From contig CAZXMW010000006.1 of assembly GCA_964641415.1 (NCBI GenBank), positions 2,088 to 66,087 of the forward strand: 64,000 nucleotides of DNA, given 5' to 3'. Each line of letters begins with the position of its first letter. Positions within the stretch are counted from its first letter, which is position 1. Position numbers and translations under genes: made by a program. Below the pieces are notes generated by a model. The model did no database searches. It was not told the DNA's origin and saw only the letters and a program-made list of their open reading frames with translations. Shown one piece after another: positions 18,103 through 63,979 of this stretch. Source of the stretch: an uncultured Thermoanaerobaculia bacterium (GTDB lineage: Bacteria; Acidobacteriota; Thermoanaerobaculia; Thermoanaerobaculales; Sulfomarinibacteraceae).

Positions 18103-18124
18103 GGCCCTGGGAAACCGTTGATTA

Positions 18125-18300
18125 GTTCCCGTCCGGAAACGGCGCTTTTTGGCAATCTCGGCGTCAGATGACGAATTTCCTTGTGCGGCGTACAGAAGTA
18201 CGCCTCCGCGTAAATTCTGATCTTCCTTGACCTTGCACAAAAACCCCTCGTTTCCGAATCGAGAACTGCGCAGTCCCCATCGGGGTTTCCGGATGGAAAC
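18125..18300 (+). mobile_element. MITE-like element family A, copy 1 (176 bp)
   Basis: 16-bp terminal inverted repeats: GTTCCCGTCCGGAAAC ... GTTTCCGGATGGAAAC. Flanked by a perfect 6-bp direct repeat TGATTA (18119-18124 and 18301-18306). Visibly lower GC than its surroundings. Internal hairpins CGTCA-GA-TGACG and GGCGTAC-AGAA-GTACGCC. Differs from copy 3 at 3 positions and from copy 2 at 8. Confidence 0.8.
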
Positions 18301-18303
18301 TGA

Positions 18304-20689: not shown

Positions 20690-21142
20690 ATGACCGCTGC
20701 GGAAGCCAAAGTCGGCGCGCCGGCACGCACGCCGGTGCATCTGTGGATCGTCGGTGTGCTGTCGCTGCTGTGGAATTTCATGGGGGTCTTCGACTACCTG
20801 GCGACCCAGCTGAAGGCCGAGTTCTATCTCAGTCAGTTCACACCCGAACAGCTCGCTTACTTCCAGAGCTTCCCCGCGTGGATGGTCGCCGGCTGGGCCC
20901 TCGGCGTCTGGGGAGCGTTCGCGGGTTCTATCGGCCTCCTGCTCCGCCAGCGTTGGGCGGTGTGGGCCTTCGCGGTGTCAATCGCCGGAATGGTGGTGAG
21001 TTCGATCTACAGCTTCGGCCTGTCCGACGGGGCCGAGGTGATGGGCAGCGGCGGCGTTGTCTTCACGGTCGTGATCTGGGTCGTCGCGATCCTGCTCCTG
21101 TTCTATGCCCGCACCCAGGCTCGAAACGGTGTGCTTCGTTAG
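20690..21142 (+). CDS. 4-TM membrane protein, unknown function
   Basis: GGGGGAG RBS. Four hydrophobic segments. The stop codon TAG is formed at the junction with MITE-A copy 2. Confidence 0.65.
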   Translation: MTAAEAKVGAPARTPVHLWIVGVLSLLWNFMGVFDYLATQLKAEFYLSQFTPEQLAYFQSFPAWMVAGWALGVWGAFAGSIGLLLRQRWAVWAFAVSIAGMVVSSIYSFGLSDGAEVMGSGGVVFTVVIWVVAILLLFYARTQARNGVLR

Positions 21143-21317
21143 TTCCCGTCCGGAAACGGCGTTTTTTGGCAATCTCAGCGTCAGATGACGAATTTCCTTG
21201 TGCGGCGTACAGAAGTACGCCTCCGCGTACATTCTGATCTTCCTTGACCTTGCACAAGAACCCCTCGTTTCCGAATCGAGAGCTGCGCAGTCCCCATCGG
21301 AATTTCCGGATGGGAAC
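21142..21317 (+). mobile_element. MITE-like element family A, copy 2 (176 bp)
   Basis: Same TIRs and length as copy 1. Flanking hexamers are TCGTTA / TCGTGA (5 of 6 identical). Confidence 0.8.
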
Positions 21318-21503
21318 TCGTGAGCCGTCGGCGGTTCGCGAGACTCGGATGGATCTGCCCGATCCGGGCCGGTGGTTTCGGCTCTCGAAACCGTCACACT
21401 CGACTCAACGAATCTGATCAGGACGGCTGGAATACCTGAGAAGCGGTGTTGGTTGGCGAGGGTGTCCAGGGTATGATAAGCCGACGATGATGGAGCGGGG
21501 GAC

Positions 21504-27750: not shown

Positions 27751-27914
27751 GACCTAAGGTGAGCGATTCTCACTGGCGATCTGCACCAGGCTCTTGCGCT
27801 CTGGATGGTTGCGAAAATACTCGACATACCAAAGGGTATGCCTCCGTTTTTCGCAACCACCAGCGCATCAAGATCTTGGTACATCTCATCCAGCAGAACC
27901 GCTCACCTTAGGTC
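27751..27914 (+). mobile_element. MITE-like / nested-palindrome element family B, copy 1
   Basis: Terminal arms GACCTAAGGTGAGCG ... CGCTCACCTTAGGTC (perfect 15 bp, extendable to ATCTCTGACC.../...GGTCTGAGAT). Inner arms GGTTGCGAAAA ... TTTTCGCAACC and CATACC-AAAG-GGTATG. Lower GC. Second copy at 37872..38034. Confidence 0.7.
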
Positions 27915-27927
27915 TGAGATCCAGCAT

Positions 27928-37871: not shown

Positions 37872-38034
37872 GACCTAAGCTGAGCGATTCTCACTGGCGA
37901 TCTGCACCAAGCTCCTGGGCCCTGGATAGTTGAGAAAATACTCGACATACCAACGGGTATGCCTCCGTTTTTCGCAACCATCAGCGCATCAGGATCTTGG
38001 CACATCTCATCCAGCAGAATCGCTCAGCTTAGGT
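37872..38034 (+). mobile_element. MITE-like / nested-palindrome element family B, copy 2
   Basis: Arms ACCTAAGCTGAGCGATTCT ... AGAATCGCTCAGCTTAGGT. Relative to copy 1, the G-to-C change in the left arm is matched by a C-to-G change in the right arm. Same orientation as copy 1, with roughly 20 differences. Confidence 0.7.
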
Positions 38035-38352
38035 GAGATTGTCTTTTGAGCCGGCGTGACGACCCTGATATCTTCTCCGGTAGAGATCAGCTTGCGCCGA
38101 ACCCCGGCACCGACCGACATCGCGAGATCCAGGCCGCGTTGCGGACCGGCAAGCCCGATGCCTGGACCATCAACTCCGTGACGCCGACCACCGGGAACGG
38201 TTGCCCGAGCGCGTCGCCGACGACCGGTGGTACTGAGGCCGGCAACCTCGTGTACTGGCAGGGCGCCAACTACGTCGTCGGCGACAGTGGTTCCGTCTCT
38301 CCTGGAGTCTGGCTCCGAGGTTGAGTTACCATGTGATCCGGGTGTGTGCAGC

Positions 38353-50612: not shown

Positions 50613-52043
50613 ATGACCGAGACTGTCGTCATCAACCCCGTCACCCGTATCGAGGGCCACGGCAAGATCACCATCGAGCTTGACGAGCACGGCTTCGTCG
50701 CCGGCGCGCGGTTCCACGTCACCCAACTGCGCGGTTTCGAGACCTTCTGCCAGGGCCGGCCGTTCGCCGAGATGCCGTCGCTCATGGCCCGGATCTGCGG
50801 CATCTGTCCGGTCAGCCACCTCGTGGCGTCAGCCAAGGCCTGCGACGACGTGATGGCGGTGACGGTCCCTCCCACCGCCGAGAAGCTCCGTCGCGTCATG
50901 AATCTGGCGCAGATCATCCAGAGCCACGCGCTGAGCTTCTTTCATCTGTCGTCGCCGGACCTGCTGCTCGGCATGGACGCCGAGCAGGACCAGCGCAACT
51001 TCCTCGCCCTCGCCGCGCACCACCCGGGAATCGTTCGCGAGGGCATCGAGCTGCGGAAGTTCGGCCAGCAGGTCATCGAGATGCTCGGGGGCCGCCGCAT
51101 CCACCCGGCCTGGATCGTGCCCGGCGGCGTTGCCGCGCCGCTGGAAAGCGACCAGCGGGACGCCATCGCCGAGCGGATCCCGAGCCAGATCCGGGTCGTG
51201 CAGCGCACCCTCGACTGGTTCAAGAGCCTGCTCGAAGGGTTCGCGGAGGAGATCCGGTCGTTCGCCAACTTCCCGTCGGCCTTCATGGCGCTCGTCGACG
51301 ACGACGGCGGGCTCGAGCACTACGACGGCCGGCTCCGGGTCGTCGACGCCGCCGGCGAAACGACGGTCGACGACGTCGACCCGACACGGTACGAGGGGCT
51401 CATCGGCGAGGCCGTCGAACCGTGGACCTACCTCAAGTTCCCCTACCTGCTGTCGAAGGGCTACCCCGACGGCATGTATCGGGTCGGGCCTCTGGCGCGG
51501 CTCAACGTCGTCGACTCCTGCGGGACACCGTGGGCCGATCAGGAGCTCGCCGAGTTTCGCGGGCTCGGTCACGGCGCGGTTCACTCGTCGTTCTACTTCC
51601 ACTACGCGCGACTCATCGAGATTCTCTTCTGCCTCGAGCGGATGCAGCAGATTCTCGCCGACGACGGCGTCCTCGACCCGCGGGTCCGGGCCCACGCCGA
51701 CGCCAACTCGTCCGAGGGAATCGGCGTGGCGGAGGCGCCGCGCGGGCTGCTCATCCACCACTACCGGGTCGATCGCCAGGGGCTGGTCGAGGACGCCAAC
51801 CTCATCATCGCCACCGGACACAACAACCTGGCCATGAACCGCGGGGTCTACCAGGTCGCGAAGCGCTTCATCCGGGATGGACGCCTCGACGACGGTATCC
51901 TCAACCGGGTCGAAGCGGTGATCCGCGCCTTCGACCCCTGCCTGTCGTGCTCGACCCACGCCGTGGGGAAGATGCCGCTTGAGCTCCGGCTCGTCGACGT
52001 GCGCGGCCGAGAACTCGACCGTTTGGTGCGCGACGACAAATAG
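50613..52043 (+). CDS. hoxH: NiFe hydrogenase large subunit HoxH (group 3d)
   Basis: N-terminal [10 protein letters not shown] and C-terminal DPCLSCSTH NiFe-ligand motifs, followed by a cleavable extension [13 protein letters not shown]... Confidence 0.95.
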
Positions 52044-52044
52044 C

Positions 52045-52488
52045 TCAGGCAGTCTCGACGAGCGCGACAACTGCGGCGACGGCCTCGGGGAGGGCCGCCT
52101 CGACCGCAGGTGAGAGCGCTTCACCGAGCTCGAGGTTGCCGGCGCCGACGCTGACGAGCCAGACCTCGGGGCGGCCCTCGAAGAGAGCGTACGCCCCGTT
52201 GACGAGCTCCTGGGGACCGAGCAGGTGCGCGGCGGCAGGCTGCCAGCCGGTGTCGGTCGGTCGGATCGGGGTTCGGCGGATCTCTCCGGGCGCCAGATCG
52301 ACGGCGGCGTCCACGAGCACCACGCGCTGAGCACGGGCGGCCGCCTCGATGTGCTCCGGCAGCAGCTGGTGCACCTCGAGCACCTCGGCCTCGACCATCG
52401 ACGCCACCTCACGGGCAACGGCGGGGCCGACGCCATCGTCGCGCCTGAGCCGGTTGCCGACGCCGACAACGAGAACTCCGGATCGCAT
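52045..52488 (-). CDS. hoxW: hydrogenase maturation endopeptidase (HoxW/HycI family)
   Basis: MRSGVLVVGVGNRLRRDDGVGPAVA... with a later VVLVDA block. Convergent with hoxH, with one nucleotide between the two stop codons. Confidence 0.85.
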   Translation of the reverse strand: MRSGVLVVGVGNRLRRDDGVGPAVAREVASMVEAEVLEVHQLLPEHIEAAARAQRVVLVDAAVDLAPGEIRRTPIRPTDTGWQPAAAHLLGPQELVNGAYALFEGRPEVWLVSVGAGNLELGEALSPAVEAALPEAVAAVVALVETA

Positions 52489-52531
52489 GATTCCTGTGAA
52501 GTGTAACCGGTTGTGGGGGCGGTTGACTCCA

Positions 52532-52729
52532 CTGTGCCCGTCGTGCGCGGCGAAGCGGTCGGCCGCGACGGAGAGAAAAACCGGTTGCGCCCGCGTGGGT
52601 GCCGGGCTCCAACTTTGTACGCCGCGAACAAAGTTGCGTGCCTGGCATCCCCTTCCATCGCGATGCGGAAAACAAGCGCCTAGGGGCGTGGTACCTTCGA
52701 GGCAGGTGAAAGGAAATTCCTATCGGAGC
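52532..52729 (+). repeat. repeat family D, copy 1 (198 bp), 5' part of a long non-coding region
   Basis: Near-identical to 56643..56838 (about 9 differences including a 2-nt indel). Contains hairpin CCGT..CGCGGC-N10-GCCGCG-ACGG, the string TTGCGCCCGCGTGGGTGCCGGG, and a perfect 9-bp hairpin CAACTTTGT-N9-ACAAAGTTG. Confidence 0.85.
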
Positions 52730-53326
52730 GGCCGACAAGGTCGCGAGTCTTGCGGGGTGGAAGTCCCCGCGCCCTCAATTGCCCGGTTCGGAGGGCTAGC
52801 ATATCCGATGCATACACCGGTAACGATGCATGTTCTGCTCGGACGTAAACGCCACGGCCGCCCTGCGGTTGGAATTCGCGGAGGTGGGAGCGACCTGGGT
52901 GGCAGGCAAACTTGGAGGCCCGAACATCATGGAATTGCTGCAGTTGCGAAATTCCCTTCCACTGTGAAGTTGCTGGAGTGGGTATTCGCGGGGGAGCCGA
53001 CCTGTGATAGGACGGGGACGGCCGATGATGCGGGGGAAGAAACGGGCGAGTGCACCCCGCAGACCGCTGCGACGGGGGCCCGAGCATCCAAGGATACAAG
53101 CCAGGGTCAGAACCGGACTCGGAAAATCCGACCGTCCGGGATCGTAGCGGGGCCCATGGAGACGTGGACCATGGTTGGAGCTGCACGGGCACGGACCGCC
53201 GAAAGGCCGACACAGCCAAGCCTTGACCTAACGCCGCGCGCGCCAAGGTTCTATCACGACCGTCGTCCCGAAGCGACACGGGTTTCGGGGTATCGTTCAA
53301 TCGTCAAAAGGCAGTGGAGGCGACAC

Positions 53327-54790
53327 ATGACAGGACGATGGATGGCCGCACTGGCCGTGGTGGCGATGGCGGGAAGCGGCGTCAGCGCCCTCGCCGTCGA
53401 GCCCGAGAACGGAGTCGAGGCCGCAAGGAGGGCAGCCGACGCGTTGTCGATGGCCACGGAACAGACACCGATCACCGGTTCGCTTGACGGCGTCATCATG
53501 GAGGAAGAACCGCCCTCCGCGCCGAACCTCAAATGGCTGCACTCCCAGGCGGTGATATCGGCCCCGACGCTCGAGATGGTCGAGCCGTCGATTGCCACGG
53601 CTCCGGACGGCCGGCTGTTCGCCGCCGTGGATGAGAGAGGGACGGCGGCGATTTACATCTATCATTCGACGGACTACGGCGTGACGTGGTCGCCGCTCGT
53701 AGTGTACGCGCACGGGCCGCTGACCCGGAACCCGGCGCTGGCATATGCCGAGATTTCCGGCCAGAAGTGGCTCGTCTTCGTCTACGAGCTCGTGCTCTCG
53801 GATGCTTCACGATCGTTGTACGCGTTCCGTTTCGATCCGGACGACACCGGGAACTGGATGACCGTCCCCATCGAAATCGACATCTCGTGGCTGAACGCAT
53901 CGACCGAGCTCCACCCGCAGATCACAACGGACTACCTCGATTGGCCCTCGCCTTATTTTTACGTGACCTACGCCACTCCGTCGATCGAACACTATCCGGT
54001 CTTCTTCACCCGGAGCACCGATCAGGGAGCGACCTGGAGCACCCCGGAGGAAGTCAGCGGGGGTTCCGATATCACCGGCTTCGAATCGAAGCCGGAAATC
54101 ACGTACTGCGCATATGACGACGATGTCTACATCGCATTCAACAAACCGGGGTGGACCGGCAGTGCCTGGGAGCAGCAGGTCTGGGTCACGAAGAGTGGAA
54201 ACTGCGGAGCAGCGGGCTCGTGGCAAGCTCCGGTTCAGGTGACGTCGTCGCCCCGTCCCGACCATCATCCCTCGATCGCAGCCGCGTGGGACGCCGCGAC
54301 GATCGTCGTGAGCTTCACGTCTGAGTACAGCGCGAGCGACAACGATGTCGAAAGAACGTTCTCGACCGACGGCGGAGCGACCTGGTCAAGCCCAGTTTCG
54401 ATGCCCGGGTGGACCTACGATCAGGAGGACAACGTCGATCTCGCCGCCAGCCGGTCGGCGGGAGGGCGCTTCCACGCGGCCTACCGCAAGGATGAGCCGA
54501 GTCCGGCTCTTGGCCACATCCACTACAGCTGGGCTCACGTCGCGATGCCGGATATTTGGAGCATGCCGGTGATTGTCGACAACACCGCCAACGTCAGCGG
54601 CGCCGGATTCCACCCGCGCCCTTCGATCGCAGTGCTTCAGTCGGTTCCGCCGAGCGTCGATGCGGTGATGGCGTGGACCGAGATCTCCGCGACCTATCAA
54701 GTCATCTTCGACGGTCCCGGGGCCGGCTTGCTCTTCGCCGACGACTTCGAGTCCGGGGGACTCACCGGGTGGTCGGCGACGGTACATTGA
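53327..54790 (+). CDS. secreted BNR/Asp-box (sialidase-like beta-propeller) protein with C-terminal FADDFESG..W motif
   Basis: GGAGG RBS. Signal MTGRWMAALAVVAMAGSGVSALA. Three Asp-boxes: STDYGVTW, STDQGATW, STDGGATW. Ends ...GLLFADDFESGGLTGWSATVH. The 326 codons upstream in the same open frame lack coding-type codon bias. Confidence 0.85.
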   Translation: MTGRWMAALAVVAMAGSGVSALAVEPENGVEAARRAADALSMATEQTPITGSLDGVIMEEEPPSAPNLKWLHSQAVISAPTLEMVEPSIATAPDGRLFAAVDERGTAAIYIYHSTDYGVTWSPLVVYAHGPLTRNPALAYAEISGQKWLVFVYELVLSDASRSLYAFRFDPDDTGNWMTVPIEIDISWLNASTELHPQITTDYLDWPSPYFYVTYATPSIEHYPVFFTRSTDQGATWSTPEEVSGGSDITGFESKPEITYCAYDDDVYIAFNKPGWTGSAWEQQVWVTKSGNCGAAGSWQAPVQVTSSPRPDHHPSIAAAWDAATIVVSFTSEYSASDNDVERTFSTDGGATWSSPVSMPGWTYDQEDNVDLAASRSAGGRFHAAYRKDEPSPALGHIHYSWAHVAMPDIWSMPVIVDNTANVSGAGFHPRPSIAVLQSVPPSVDAVMAWTEISATYQVIFDGPGAGLLFADDFESGGLTGWSATVH

Positions 54791-54830
54791 CCCCTGCCGC
54801 GAACGTACTGGCGCCCGTATACCCGTAGAT

Positions 54831-54930
54831 TCAGAGTTCGCCGAACTCCTCGACGAGTTGGACGCAAAACTGTCGGAAGCCTGTTATGAATGAACCAAGA
54901 TCGTCTGAATCGTCTGACCCGGCACCCGTA
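54831..54930 (+). repeat. repeat family C, copy 1 (about 100 bp, diverged)
   Basis: CAGAGTTCGCCGAACTCCTCGACGAGTTGGACGC...AGATCGTCTGAATCGTCTGACCCGGCACCCGTA. Contains the palindrome GAGTTCGcCGAACTC and a tandem ATCGTCTGA x2. Confidence 0.8.
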
Positions 54931-56249: not shown

Positions 56250-56642
56250 TCAGGCTCACGTGCGGCGGTTTCACGCCAATCTCGCCGTTCTAGTTCACTC
56301 GTCGACGGGAAAGGTCCATCTCGACTGACTGGAACAGGGTCCCGTCAGGGCAGCCCCACAGCCCGCTGTCCCCGGTCGGTGAGCGGTGGACGACGCCTTT
56401 GAACGTCCCGTGGATCCTCTCCATCCCGTGATCGTCCTTCTCGTAGGTTCCGGCGAACGGAACCTCGCCGAGGAGTACCTGCTCGTTGCTCGCGCGCCCT
56501 GCGCGCGGCGACTCACACGCCGCCAGCGGGTGGCCGTAGGCCGTCCTTCCCCTTCTCCGGTCGGGCTCCGCCCTCCCTGCGACCCCCTCGGCCACGGCCA
56601 CGTGCCGCTGCCGACGGTGAGTGCTCGGGCAAGACCCGGGAG

Positions 56643-56838
56643 CTGTGCCCGTCGTGCGCGGCGAAGCGGTCGGCCGCGACGGAGAGAAAAACCGGTTGCG
56701 CCCGCGTGGGTGCCGGGCTCCAACTTTGTACGCCGCGAACAAAGTTGTGTGCCTGGCATCCCCTTCCATCGCGATGCGAAACAAGCGGCTATGGGCGTGG
56801 TACCTTCGGGCTGGGTGAAAGGAAATTCCTATCGGAGC
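56643..56838 (+). repeat. repeat family D, copy 2 (196 bp)
   Basis: See copy 1. Homology starts at CTGTGCCCGTCGTGCG and ends at ...TTCCTATCGGAGC. The flanks are unrelated. Confidence 0.85.
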
Positions 56839-57049: not shown

Positions 57050-57703
57050 ATGGAAGAAAACCTCTACGGCGCCATCCTGCAGCGCGATGAGGCCACCTAC
57101 GCCATCGTCCCCCGCACGCCCGTGGGACTCGTGACGCCGGAGCATCTCGAGAACATCGCGGCCGTCGCGCGCAAGTACCAGGTCCCCGTGATCAAGATCA
57201 CCTCCGGCCAGCGCTTCGCTCTCGTCGGCATCCGCCCCGAGGACCTCGAGCAGGTCTGGAAGGACCTCGGCATGGACATCGGCCGCGCCGTCGAACTGTG
57301 CATGCACTACGTCCAGGCATGTCCCGGCACGACGGTGTGCAAGTACGGCCAACAGGACTCGCTCGGGCTCGGCATGCAGATCGAGGAGTTCTTTCTCGAC
57401 ATGGAGCTGCCCGCCAAGGTGAAGATCGGCGTCTCCGGCTGTCCCCTGTGTTGTGCCGAGAGCTTCGTTCGGGATATCGGTGTCTTCGGCAAGAAGTCCG
57501 GCTGGAGCCTGGTGGTGGGTGGCACCTCCGCCCGGCGGGTCCGCGTCGGCGACCTGATCGGCGAGAAGGTCTCGGAAGCGGACGTCATTCCACTCATCAA
57601 AAAGACACTGGAGTACTACAAGGCCAACGCCAGGCCCGGCGAGCGGATGGCGAGATTCGTCGACCGCATCGGCATCGAGGAGGTCAAGGAGGCCCTCTTT
57701 TGA
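57050..57703 (+). CDS. small nitrite/sulfite reductase-domain protein (4Fe-4S/siroheme-type, low-molecular-weight aSir-like)
   Basis: GGAGGAG RBS. Ferredoxin-like half domain (GLVTPEHLENIAAVARKYQVPVIKITSGQRFALVGI). Cys clusters CPGTTVCKYG and GCPLCCAES. Confidence 0.8.
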   Translation: MEENLYGAILQRDEATYAIVPRTPVGLVTPEHLENIAAVARKYQVPVIKITSGQRFALVGIRPEDLEQVWKDLGMDIGRAVELCMHYVQACPGTTVCKYGQQDSLGLGMQIEEFFLDMELPAKVKIGVSGCPLCCAESFVRDIGVFGKKSGWSLVVGGTSARRVRVGDLIGEKVSEADVIPLIKKTLEYYKANARPGERMARFVDRIGIEEVKEALF

Positions 57704-57706
57704 TTG

Positions 57707-57791
57707 CTCCTCGACGAGTTGAACGCAAAGCCGTCGGAAGCCTGTCGTGAACGAATCAAGATCGTCTGAATCGTCTGACCCGGCACCCGTA
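57707..57791 (+). repeat. repeat family C, copy 2 (85 bp)
   Basis: 100 percent identical over 85 bp to 60043..60127. Begins 4 nt after the stop codon of the reductase-like gene. Confidence 0.9.
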
Positions 57792-58002
57792 TGCAGTACC
57801 GGCCCGCGAGATCCTCGATCCCCGCGAGTTCAATCGCCGCCGGCGGGCGTGCCGGGTACGGCATTGTGCTCGCATCACATCCCGGCCAGGAGCGCCGTCC
57901 GCACAATGCCGATACCGGGCAACCGCCGAGCCCGAGCGCCGATCCCCGTGCACAGATCCCGCCAGCAGGCGAGGGCGGACCAGAAGGCCGGTGGCGTAGA
58001 AC

Positions 58003-59730: not shown

Positions 59731-60028
59731 ATGCAAGCCCGCGGTGTCTCAAAGTCGTTGACACGCCCCGGCGAGGTCCGCAGAACCGCAGTTACGACAA
59801 ACAACTACGGAACTGCGGACCTGGTACCCATACGCCTCGGGATCTCCCCGGACACACTGTCCGGAAACCTCAAGGACCGGAAAACGACGAAGCTGCGTCA
59901 GATGGTGGCTACCTTTGGAATCGAACGGTGGGAGTAGCGATCCGGATTCCTCGGGAAAGCTCTCGGCAAACATCCGGACGTCGTCAGTCGCTGGGCACGA
60001 TCAAACACGGACAGGAGATCGACGAATC

Positions 60029-60127
60029 CAGAGTTTGCCGAACTCCTCGACGAGTTGAACGCAAAGCCGTCGGAAGCCTGTCGTGAACGAATCAAGATCG
60101 TCTGAATCGTCTGACCCGGCACCCGTA
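60029..60127 (+). repeat. repeat family C, copy 3 (about 99 bp)
   Basis: CAGAGTTTGCCGAACTCCTCGACGAG... Its last 85 bp are identical to copy 2. Followed by a GGCACCCGTA tandem. Confidence 0.9.
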
Positions 60128-60222
60128 GGCACCCGTACGCACCTCTTGCCGTCACGCTGGCACGACAGCGTCGGGCTTTGGTTGAACCGCAAAGACGCAA
60201 AGATCGCGACGGACTTCGCCTC

Positions 60223-63800: not shown

Positions 63801-63803
63801 CTA

Positions 63804-63979
63804 GTTCCCGTCCGGAAACGGCGCTTTTTGGCAATCTCGGCGTCAGATGACGAATTTCCTTGTGCGGCGTACAGAAGTACGCCTCCGCGTAAACTCTGAT
63901 CTTCCTTGACCTTGCACAAAAATCCCTCGTTTCCGAATCGAGAACTGCGCAGTCCCCATCGGGGTTTCCGGATGGGAAC
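63804..63979 (+). mobile_element. MITE-like element family A, copy 3 (176 bp)
   Basis: Same TIRs and length as copies 1 and 2. Differs from copy 1 at 3 positions. Flanking hexamers TAGCTA / GAGCGA (4 of 6). Begins 3 nt after the stop codon of the preceding gene. Confidence 0.8.

Follow-up and report, generated by a model that had tools for sequence, protein, structure and literature searches.

The hoxW-BNR intergenic region of an uncultured Thermoanaerobaculia bacterium as a probable stack of three defunct mobile elements, the last a truncated group II intron

What fills the 838 bp of DNA between the start of hoxW (position 52488, minus strand) and the start of a BNR gene (53327) in an uncultured Thermoanaerobaculia bacterium? 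An earlier note on the window analysed here (64,000 nucleotides (nt) of contig CAZXMW010000006.1) read this region as non-coding, partly duplicated and hairpin-rich, and offered three explanations: (a) a degenerate, fragmentary or open reading frame (ORF)-less group II intron, (b) another large structured RNA, or (c) a mobile promoter or leader cassette. We find that the region is very probably a stack of three mobile elements, all of them defunct in the window copy, which would turn the apparently structured 840 bp into annotated debris: a remnant of an IS91-family insertion sequence (IS), a repetitive extragenic palindrome (REP)-like repeat and a truncated group II intron. The call of non-coding DNA was upheld, as codon periodicity was absent across 52550-53300 and no frame there showed the strong third-position G+C excess of the neighbouring genes. 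Hairpin richness was not: 52730-53326 folded no better than shuffled sequence (z = +0.79 and +0.97 for the two strands), and the duplicated 198 nt gave z = -1.2 and -0.4.

The duplication itself was confirmed. Positions 52532-52729 recur at 56643-56838 (198 nt, 95.5% identity, E = 6e-86), and the remainder of the hoxW-BNR region is single-copy within the 64-kb window. On the plus strand, 52532-52571 codes for LCPSCAAKRSAAT, which belongs to the N-terminal zinc-binding domain of an IS91-family transposase; by tblastn, 13/13 aa were identical to transposases in the related IS copies L012 and L013, and the second copy of the repeat (copy B) retains 17/17 aa (KTRELCPSCAAKRSAAT, 56631-56681). As the transposase frames of L012 and of another copy, L020, are frameshifted, the Pfam query was pieced together by hand from both; it matched Y2_Tnp (1.5e-24) and Zn_Tnp_IS91 (8.9e-14). 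An intact 416-aa transposase gene with matches to both families is present in L110. Full HUH Y2 and Zn_Tnp_IS91 domains are present in the relatives. In the window, 13 aa survive in copy A and 17 aa in copy B, all identical to L012/L013; the element there is a remnant and not a working IS. The three pieces of the 198 bp (transposase fragment, palindrome and right end) are collinear with the full-length IS in L012, L020 and L013, in equal order and orientation. An A-rich linker with a deletion junction (52572-52595), which includes the left flank of the palindrome, has no counterpart in those full-length copies. The terminator-like hairpin that had been proposed at 52537-52572 did not stand up. 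It is a relic of the coding sequence for LCPSCAAKRSAAT, with a z of -0.73 against shuffles and no U-run on either strand (A's follow it on one strand and T's precede it on the other); three terminator-like sites were found (0.8 expected), all on the minus strand and none at this hairpin. Judged from these alignments, the 198 bp is what internal deletion has left of an IS91 element, together with a REP-like element inside it, and is neither intron nor terminator.

The remnant ends in an IS91-family right (oriIS-type) end at 52684-52724 on the plus strand (...GGAAATTCCTATC; ...GTGGTACCTTCGAGG(C/T)(A/G)GGTGAAAGGAAATTCCTATC). A metagenome scan with GGTGAAAGGAAATTCCTATC as an exact 20-mer returned 30 contigs, ~28 of them with common upstream IS sequence. 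Their flanks part directly after CTATC, and the right end of the IS is thereby set at that point. This end lies ~200 nt downstream of the transposase stop codon in L020, and in L110 it is collinear with the intact transposase gene. It holds a palindrome, AGGAAATTCCT, and the bases that follow CTATC vary (CGT, CC, GG) and are not GTTC or CTTG. We did not find terIS in the window remnant. The last 13 nt of the right end, 52712-52724, are the target of the intron described below.

Within the remnant lies the REP-like imperfect palindrome (52596-52670, plus strand; GGGTGCC(T/G)GGCTCCAACTTTGT-N9-ACAAAGTTGCGTGCCTGGCATCCCCTYCCATCGCG), with a second copy at 56705-56787. Its core, 52585-52675, was the sole hairpin of the region to beat chance (z = -4.4 when folded as DNA, with -6.2 and -7.8 in relatives). 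The alignment also accounts for TTGCGCCCGCGTGGGTGCCGGG, which had been likened to the 5' end of a group II intron: this string is the left flank of the palindrome and not an intron start. When genome collections were scanned with the perfect 9+9 stem from the middle of the repeat, 45 sites passed an identity cut-off, nearly all in seven metagenome-assembled genomes (MAGs) of Acidobacteriota/Thermoanaerobaculales and a few in MAGs otherwise labelled; the scan also returned unrelated hits, roughly at chance expectation. The part of the window common to these sites is only 52596-52670, with a near-invariant GGGTGCCTGGCTCCAACTTTGTTCGCCGCGAACAAAGTTGCGTGCCTGGCATCCCCTCCCATCGCG and weaker conservation over ~25 nt on each side. 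The sites are mostly intergenic and occur in all four orientations relative to neighbouring genes, and nhmmer found exactly two copies in the window. In L012, L020 and L013 the palindrome sits inside the IS91 transposase gene, and its absence from all 30 metagenomic IS-end contigs indicates that it is a secondary insertion into one IS lineage. A tblastn search of the 8-kb loci around the 45 copies, a weak test, revealed no Y1-transposase-like (RAYT) ORF; no protein family recurs beside the sites, and no Rfam family matches the palindrome. A sigma-54 promoter, checked by eye, was rejected, GG-N10-GC being absent from both arms, and so was a LexA or other operator, because ~66 nt are near-invariant at unrelated loci. 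In these comparisons the palindrome behaves as a REP/bacterial interspersed mosaic element (BIME)-type repeat. At ~10 of the 45 sites (L005, L009, L027, L029, L043, L044, L045, L059 and others) a second conserved module, ...CCGAACAATGA..GGACGGCACGTCCGTTCGAGGC, was seen ~90 nt upstream of the core, which suggests that the repeats form BIME-like mosaics. The REP-like element can serve as a marker for genomes of Thermoanaerobaculales type, and it causes assemblies to break.

The nature of the sequence to the right of the IS end became apparent from its relatives. One metagenome contig, L082, runs past the IS end and is 94% identical to 52725-53094 and 91% identical to 53091-53227, with 365 extra bases between the two segments. 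Since gene callers often predict proteins over structured RNA, a 206-codon open frame on the minus strand, itself a spurious ORF, was used as bait, and it returned 20 "proteins" rich in P, R, S and L. Six of the bait contigs (L105-L110) together with L082 gave the seven homologues that were compared; for the DNA scans of genome and metagenome collections the queries came from the palindrome and from the IS end, whereas the bait ORF and L082 are the sources of the intron copies. Five copies extend over ~850-900 nt. Four copies (L106, L108, L109 and L110) reach both ends, measure ~870-900 nt and are ORF-less; L105 is shortened at its 3' end and L107 is a 160-nt stub. In L082, an IS200-type element (947-1530; tnpA at 1025-1456, Y1_Tnp 8.7e-44) that ends in two small hairpins interrupts the 3' part of the copy. 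This tnpA prompted us to consider a TnpB/omega-RNA or an IStron, which was rejected: L082 gave no TnpB-like translation and no Rfam match, and the IS200 element had simply inserted.

Several of the homologues matched the Rfam model RF02003 (group-II-D1D4-4). L108 scored 53.5 bits (gathering score 49; E = 6.6e-10), followed by L109 (40.7), L110 (33.1) and L106 (33.0). The matching segment is homologous to window positions ~52750-52930, and that of L110 is ~90% identical to the window by eye. Two strings that the earlier note had likened to domain I of small bacterial introns, GGGGTGGAAGTCCCC and GGAGGGCTAGCATATCC, are present and fall in this segment. The cmscan check that had been proposed for the region came out negative. 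Homologues matched the group II model, whereas the window did not: nothing was found in the region when the whole window was scanned at gathering score, and E <= 10 on three sub-ranges yielded noise only (snoRNA and miRNA models). A cmscan of the window alone would have wrongly killed the group II idea, which only the homologues rescued; the group II membership of the window copy follows from its homology to copies that do match Rfam.

Folding six copies together with RNAalifold yielded 225 pairs arranged as domain (D) 1, D2, D3, an ORF-less D4 and a 34-nt D5-like hairpin. In alignment A7, D1 (~390 nt) spans columns 11-401, D2 402-500, D3 503-600, D4 (~170 nt) 603-774 and D5 776-809, after which comes a long 3' hairpin. 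With this structure 93.4% of cells were paired, compared to 35-47% with slid partners, and 80 pairs changed on both sides, compared to 11-22 with slid partners; none of 500 shuffles reached the observed values. The full-length copies thus show the six-domain fold with covariation, and the window copy lacks D2-D4. A four-pair covarying helix (AU/GC/GU) was also seen between A7 columns 7-10 and 817-820, that is, between intron nt ~7-10 and GGCU after D5. We know of no helix in canonical group II structures that joins the intron 5' end to the D5/D6 junction.

Each copy carries loops complementary to its own 5' flank. The exon-binding site (EBS) 1 loop is GAUAGG in the window, L082 and L110, where the flank ends in CCUAUC, the intron-binding site (IBS) 1; the loops and flanks elsewhere are CAGGAG/CUCCUG (L106), AACCGU/ACGGUU (L108) and AAAGCU/AGUUUU (L109). 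Cognate EBS1/IBS1 pairing is 6/6 Watson-Crick in the window, L082, L110, L106 and L108, and L109 forms six pairs, one of them G-U, compared to 3-5 pairs for non-cognate combinations between the four target types. The cognate EBS2/IBS2 stretches extend over 9 nt in L082, 7 in L106, 7 in L109 and 5 in L108. For the sub-lineage of the window copy (EBS2 AAUUUCC), the combined 13-nt IBS2 + IBS1 target, GGAAAUU-CCUAUC, is the terminal sequence of the IS91-family element, and nine of the ten closest copies abut an IS91 end (judged from DRNFLS-type motifs in spurious ORFs and from junctions). The match of EBS1 and EBS2 to the copy's own flank is the signature of insertion by reverse splicing, and the presence of EBS2 suggests an IIA/IIB-type rather than a IIC intron. 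Insertion after a terminator, as previously proposed, gives way to EBS/IBS pairing at the right end of a transposon.

Canonical group II introns start with GUGYG and have a 34-nt D5 with an AGC (or CGC) triad, a 2-nt bulge and a GNRA loop. The D5-like hairpin here (53110-53143, plus strand; GAACCGGACUCGGAAAAUCCGACCGUCCGGGAUC) also has 34 nt and a 2-nt bulge; at the AGC position it carries AAC, which faces an asymmetric loop, and its terminal loop has 5 nt (GAAAU or AAAAU). It is invariant in six copies that are otherwise ~70% identical, and the window differs at one loop base. Such invariance, seen in an alignment of this overall identity, argues for selection. The local hairpin singled out by the earlier note at 53113-53139 is present and lies inside this domain. 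The following D6-like 3' domain (53144-53260, plus strand; ~115 nt) ends ...GCGCGCCAAGGTTCTATCACGAC. The 3'-terminal ~115 nt form a long hairpin, whose end is ...UUCUAUCCCGAC in L110 and L106, where the 3' motif TTCTATC(C/A)CGAC is kept; L108 (CCAC) and L109 (CCGGC) differ slightly. Single-sequence folds of a few sequences placed an unpaired A ~8 nt from the 3' end.

How much of this intron is left in the window? Its 5' part, with most of D1, occupies 52725-53094 on the plus strand and starts G|GAGCGGCCGACAAGG; this assignment is based on homology, RF02003-matching homologues, covarying helices and EBS1/IBS1. It is 92-94% identical to L082 and L105 and ~72% identical to L106. EBS1 (GATAGG) is at 53006-53011 and EBS2 (AATTCCC) at 52950-52956, the latter with a T-to-C mutation that leaves only 4 nt perfectly paired. 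At 53094/53095, a junction with AGGA(A/T)A microhomology marks a 365-nt internal deletion; L082, L105 and L106 hold these 365 nt. The deletion took the D1 3' closing strand, D2, D3 and most of D4, and the basal helix of the D6-like hairpin is damaged. We infer that the window copy, which extends from 52725/6 to ~53260 on the plus strand, is inactive. The feature in the window is a decayed copy and ordinary debris; the intron family to which it belongs is unusual. Explanation (a) therefore stands for 52725/6-53260, and fails for a start at ~52585 and for the duplicated 198 bp; it does not explain the duplication. Another large structured RNA, explanation (b), is not needed.

In the nearest available relative, L072, whose BNR orthologue shows 90% nt identity within the gene, shared sequence begins only at 53264. 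This indicates that the whole stack is an insertion in the lineage of the window and that the native BNR upstream region is ~65 nt long (53261-53326, plus strand; BNR ATG at 53327; kept in the orthologous locus L072/L073 from 53264). At the other site, copy B (56621-56838, plus strand) is likewise a deleted IS91 remnant with the palindrome and has 22 nt more of the transposase on its left; on its right, CTATC is followed by GGAGC only, the first intron bases, and then by unrelated sequence. Since copy B ends in the first bases of the intron, the 198-bp unit spans the IS/intron junction, and it must have been duplicated, or the intron deleted, at the DNA level. A search for an intron remnant downstream of copy B gave an alignment score of 20, equal to the shuffle mean. 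That the 198-bp repeat is a miniature inverted-repeat transposable element (MITE) was also rejected, the alignment, read by eye, showing no inverted termini and no duplicated flank and the right boundary lying 5 nt into the intron. To the left of copy B, a minus-strand ORF (56290-56601) has genuine third-position G+C bias and no Pfam match. It contains a 20-nt exact match to the IS91 transposase (56466-56485; AEEYLL), displaced 135 nt from the KTRELCPSC fragment.

The homologies, the covarying fold, the EBS/IBS complementarity and the deletions are direct observations; from them we infer reverse splicing as the mechanism and the following order of events. An IS91-family rolling-circle IS, its transposase gene already interrupted by the REP-like repeat, would have inserted with its right end toward the BNR gene. 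An ORF-less, IIA/IIB-like group II intron would then have reverse-spliced into the sense strand exactly at the IS end, guided by pairing of EBS1 GAUAGG and EBS2 AAUUUCC to GGAAAUU-CCUAUC, the 13 nt that close the IS. Internal deletions, presumably later, cut the IS to ~190 bp (the zinc-finger fragment, the palindrome and the right end), and the 365-nt microhomology deletion removed D2-D4 and the D1 closing strand of the intron. Finally, the remnant with the first 4-5 intron bases would have been copied as DNA to 56643-56838, by segmental duplication or recombination rather than by transposition or retrohoming.

Several points weigh against this interpretation. Where the IS ends and the intron begins is fixed only to within 1 nt. 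In the published IS91 layout the end downstream of tnpA is oriIS, with subterminal palindromes (PMC13181058), and only by this analogy would the right end here be oriIS. None of the compared copies starts with canonical GUGYG: the 5' ends are GAGCG (window, L082, L110), GAGCA (L106, L109), CAGCG (L105, L107) and AUGCG (L108). With its AAC triad the D5 is not canonical either, and it gave no match to RF00029 (Intron_gpII) when stretches of 221-551 nt were searched at E <= 10. No reverse transcriptase (RT) was found in or beside any copy, nor among the called genes of L105-L110; D4, at ~170 nt, is ORF-less. The window sequence itself had no Rfam match, even at E <= 10 on 52400-53400 and on 52715-53265 (551 nt).

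Three other readings were weighed against the stack of defunct elements. We considered whether selection has kept the 198-bp repeat as a mobile promoter or leader that drives its minus-strand neighbours on the left (hoxW, at 52488, and the ORF ending at 56290), a reading akin to explanation (c). A minus-strand frame does start 42-44 nt left of the repeat in both copies, and hoxW has no other upstream DNA for a promoter. However, copy B has IS sequence reaching 22 nt further left, which makes the equal spacing partly accidental, and the second ORF has neither a homologue nor a certain start. No sigma-70-like site was found in 52300-53500, and the mobile-cassette idea has no direct support; the sigma-54-like strings seen by eye have the wrong spacing or the wrong -12 dinucleotide, and the REP-like element has no fixed orientation to neighbouring genes. 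As the content of the repeat is fully explained by IS debris and a REP-like element, we regard a promoter cassette as unlikely. The intron remnant could instead still be a working RNA: it might act in trans as a minimal, HYER-like ribozyme, or it might regulate the BNR gene or form a structured 5' leader for it, the start of this gene being 66 nt downstream on the same strand. D1 and D5, the minimal catalytic parts of group II introns, both survive, D5 being one loop base off the family consensus, and the remnant shows 91-94% identity to copies from two other samples, the 365-nt gap being the only indel. But D1 can no longer close, its basal helices having lost their 3' strands to the deletion; changes disrupt both EBS2 and the base of D6, the fold is no better than that of shuffled sequence, the substitutions relative to L082 show no clear pattern of constraint, and the BNR orthologue does without the whole element. 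A surviving function is thus highly improbable.

The third reading, that the intron-like RNA is cargo or an accessory of an IS91 subfamily, moved as DNA by the transposase with its 3' end ...TTCTATC as a surrogate oriIS, draws on the ten closest copies, of which nine immediately follow the right end of an IS91 element, on the intact adjacent transposase gene in L110, and on the resemblance of the 3' terminus TTCTATC to the IS end TTCCTATC in 5/5 copies that keep the 3' end. Yet L105, L106, L108 and L109 are at unrelated sites with no IS91 nearby, and the flanks of L106, L108 and L109 match their own EBS1/EBS2, as expected of RNA-guided insertion and not of IS91 transposition. TTCTATC is also kept in copies that do not target that sequence, and 29 of the 30 metagenomic IS ends lack the RNA. 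We consider transport as cargo quite unlikely. A bolder possibility, to which we attach limited but real weight, concerns the full-length relatives. They may represent an undescribed protein-less lineage of group II-like ribozymes, with a strictly conserved but non-canonical AAC/pentaloop D5, a GAGCG 5' end and an extra covarying helix, one sub-lineage of which would be specialised on the IS91 oriIS terminus, perhaps exploiting the transposon's single-stranded intermediate as a target, or blocking or riding the transposon, with the RNA under selection for an uncharacterised activity.

The setting of the stack has a consequence for hoxW. This gene, recognised by the maturation-protease signature VLVVGVGNRLRRDDGVG and a weak HycI match, lies at 52045-52488 on the minus strand, convergent with a NiFe large-subunit gene (50613-52043, plus strand) with the stop codons almost touching; it is not placed downstream of the large-subunit gene on the same strand. 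Because of this convergent arrangement, the only DNA upstream of hoxW is the mobile-element stack, which a unique 43-nt spacer (52489-52531) separates from the gene, and the hoxW promoter must lie in imported DNA. A pseudogene in 52730-53326 was considered and rejected: there is no frame periodicity, the long ORFs of both strands have no Pfam match, and substitutions relative to L082 fall 17/9/10 on the three codon positions, with no enrichment at third positions. In the Logan assembly L001, a 45-codon ORF inside D1 of the intron (52830-52967, plus strand) is among the called genes. L082 keeps its start and stop codons, with four non-synonymous and two synonymous changes read by eye, and it is probably spurious. 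L001 (SRR7048221; window 52779-54861) is the only other assembly of the exact locus. It ends ~50 nt right of the 198-bp repeat and within a repeat at 54829-54930, showing how repeats limit short-read assembly.

Other repeats were noted in the window. A ~180-nt repeat with terminal inverted repeats GTTCCCRTCCGGAAAC is present three times (18122-18301, 21139-21318 and 63802-63979; 93-98% identical) and, from its sequence, looks like a MITE. The intergenic repeat at 54829-54930 belongs to another set of three (~90-100 nt), whose copies at 57690-57795 and 60026-60131 flank an IS3-family transposase pair (58202-58729/58726-59730; HTH_Tnp_1, rve) and an unknown 152-aa ORF. A partly palindromic ~165-nt repeat (27751-27920 and 37872-38039) is 86-88% identical to sites in two Acidobacteriota MAGs (L029, 705-870; L059, 4373-4538), and 27916-28053 contains tandem CGGRCR hexamer-like units at 12- and 18-nt spacing.

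The intron family is one that standard screens miss, as it has no RT gene and no Rfam D5 match, and its D1 score is often sub-threshold. ORF-less group II ribozymes currently attract interest as tools that target DNA without a protein, and both the 13-nt recognition (EBS1 + EBS2) and the unusual conserved hairpin seem worth testing.

Compared with known systems, the REP-like element resembles REP, BIME and REPIN sequences in being a short imperfect palindrome with dozens of near-identical intergenic copies per lineage, in any orientation and sometimes accompanied by small modules. It differs in the longer conserved unit (~66-95 nt) and in that no copy has a RAYT-type transposase next to it, within the limits of a weak tblastn test. 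The IS that hosts this repeat has features of the IS91 family (IS91, IS801, IS1294, ISCR; PMC13181058): an HUH Y2 transposase with an N-terminal zinc-binding domain, complete only in the relatives; no inverted repeats; and, on the downstream side of tnpA, a right end that is distinct and conserved and contains a subterminal palindrome. Unlike those elements, the window keeps only ~80 nt of IS-derived sequence, with no terIS and no evident GTTC/CTTG-type flanking tetranucleotide, and has a foreign palindromic element within the former transposase gene.

The insertion site of the intron also has parallels. RmInt1 reportedly homes into ISRm2011-2. Like introns that home into mobile elements, the family here has its target inside another mobile element, in sense orientation, which should impose little cost on the host. 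It differs from them in aiming at the closing 13 nt of an IS91-family element, which puts the intron exactly at the IS boundary, the expected nick site of the transposase, and in that there is no intron-encoded protein. Homing into other mobile elements is described as common for bacterial group II introns (PMC4181065). ORF-less group II introns have proliferated in Thermosynechococcus (PMC2882425), and class IIC includes the ORF-less HYERs (Liu et al., Science 2024, via PMC11754743). The family described here differs from HYERs and class IIC introns in having an EBS2 (5-9 nt pairing) and a D1 of ~390 nt and in making no use of terminator hairpins, and from ORF-less group II introns generally in its 5' GAGCG, its AAC D5 with a 5-nt loop unseen by RF00029, its D6-like domain of ~115 nt and its length of ~870-900 nt, where PMC11754743 quotes 0.4-0.6 kb for ORF-less introns; the window copy, in addition, is an internally deleted fragment. 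With both ORF-less group II introns and HYERs, the family shares a multi-domain ribozyme with a short, ORF-free D4, several copies in several genomes, and an insertion site set by pairing to the intron's own loops.

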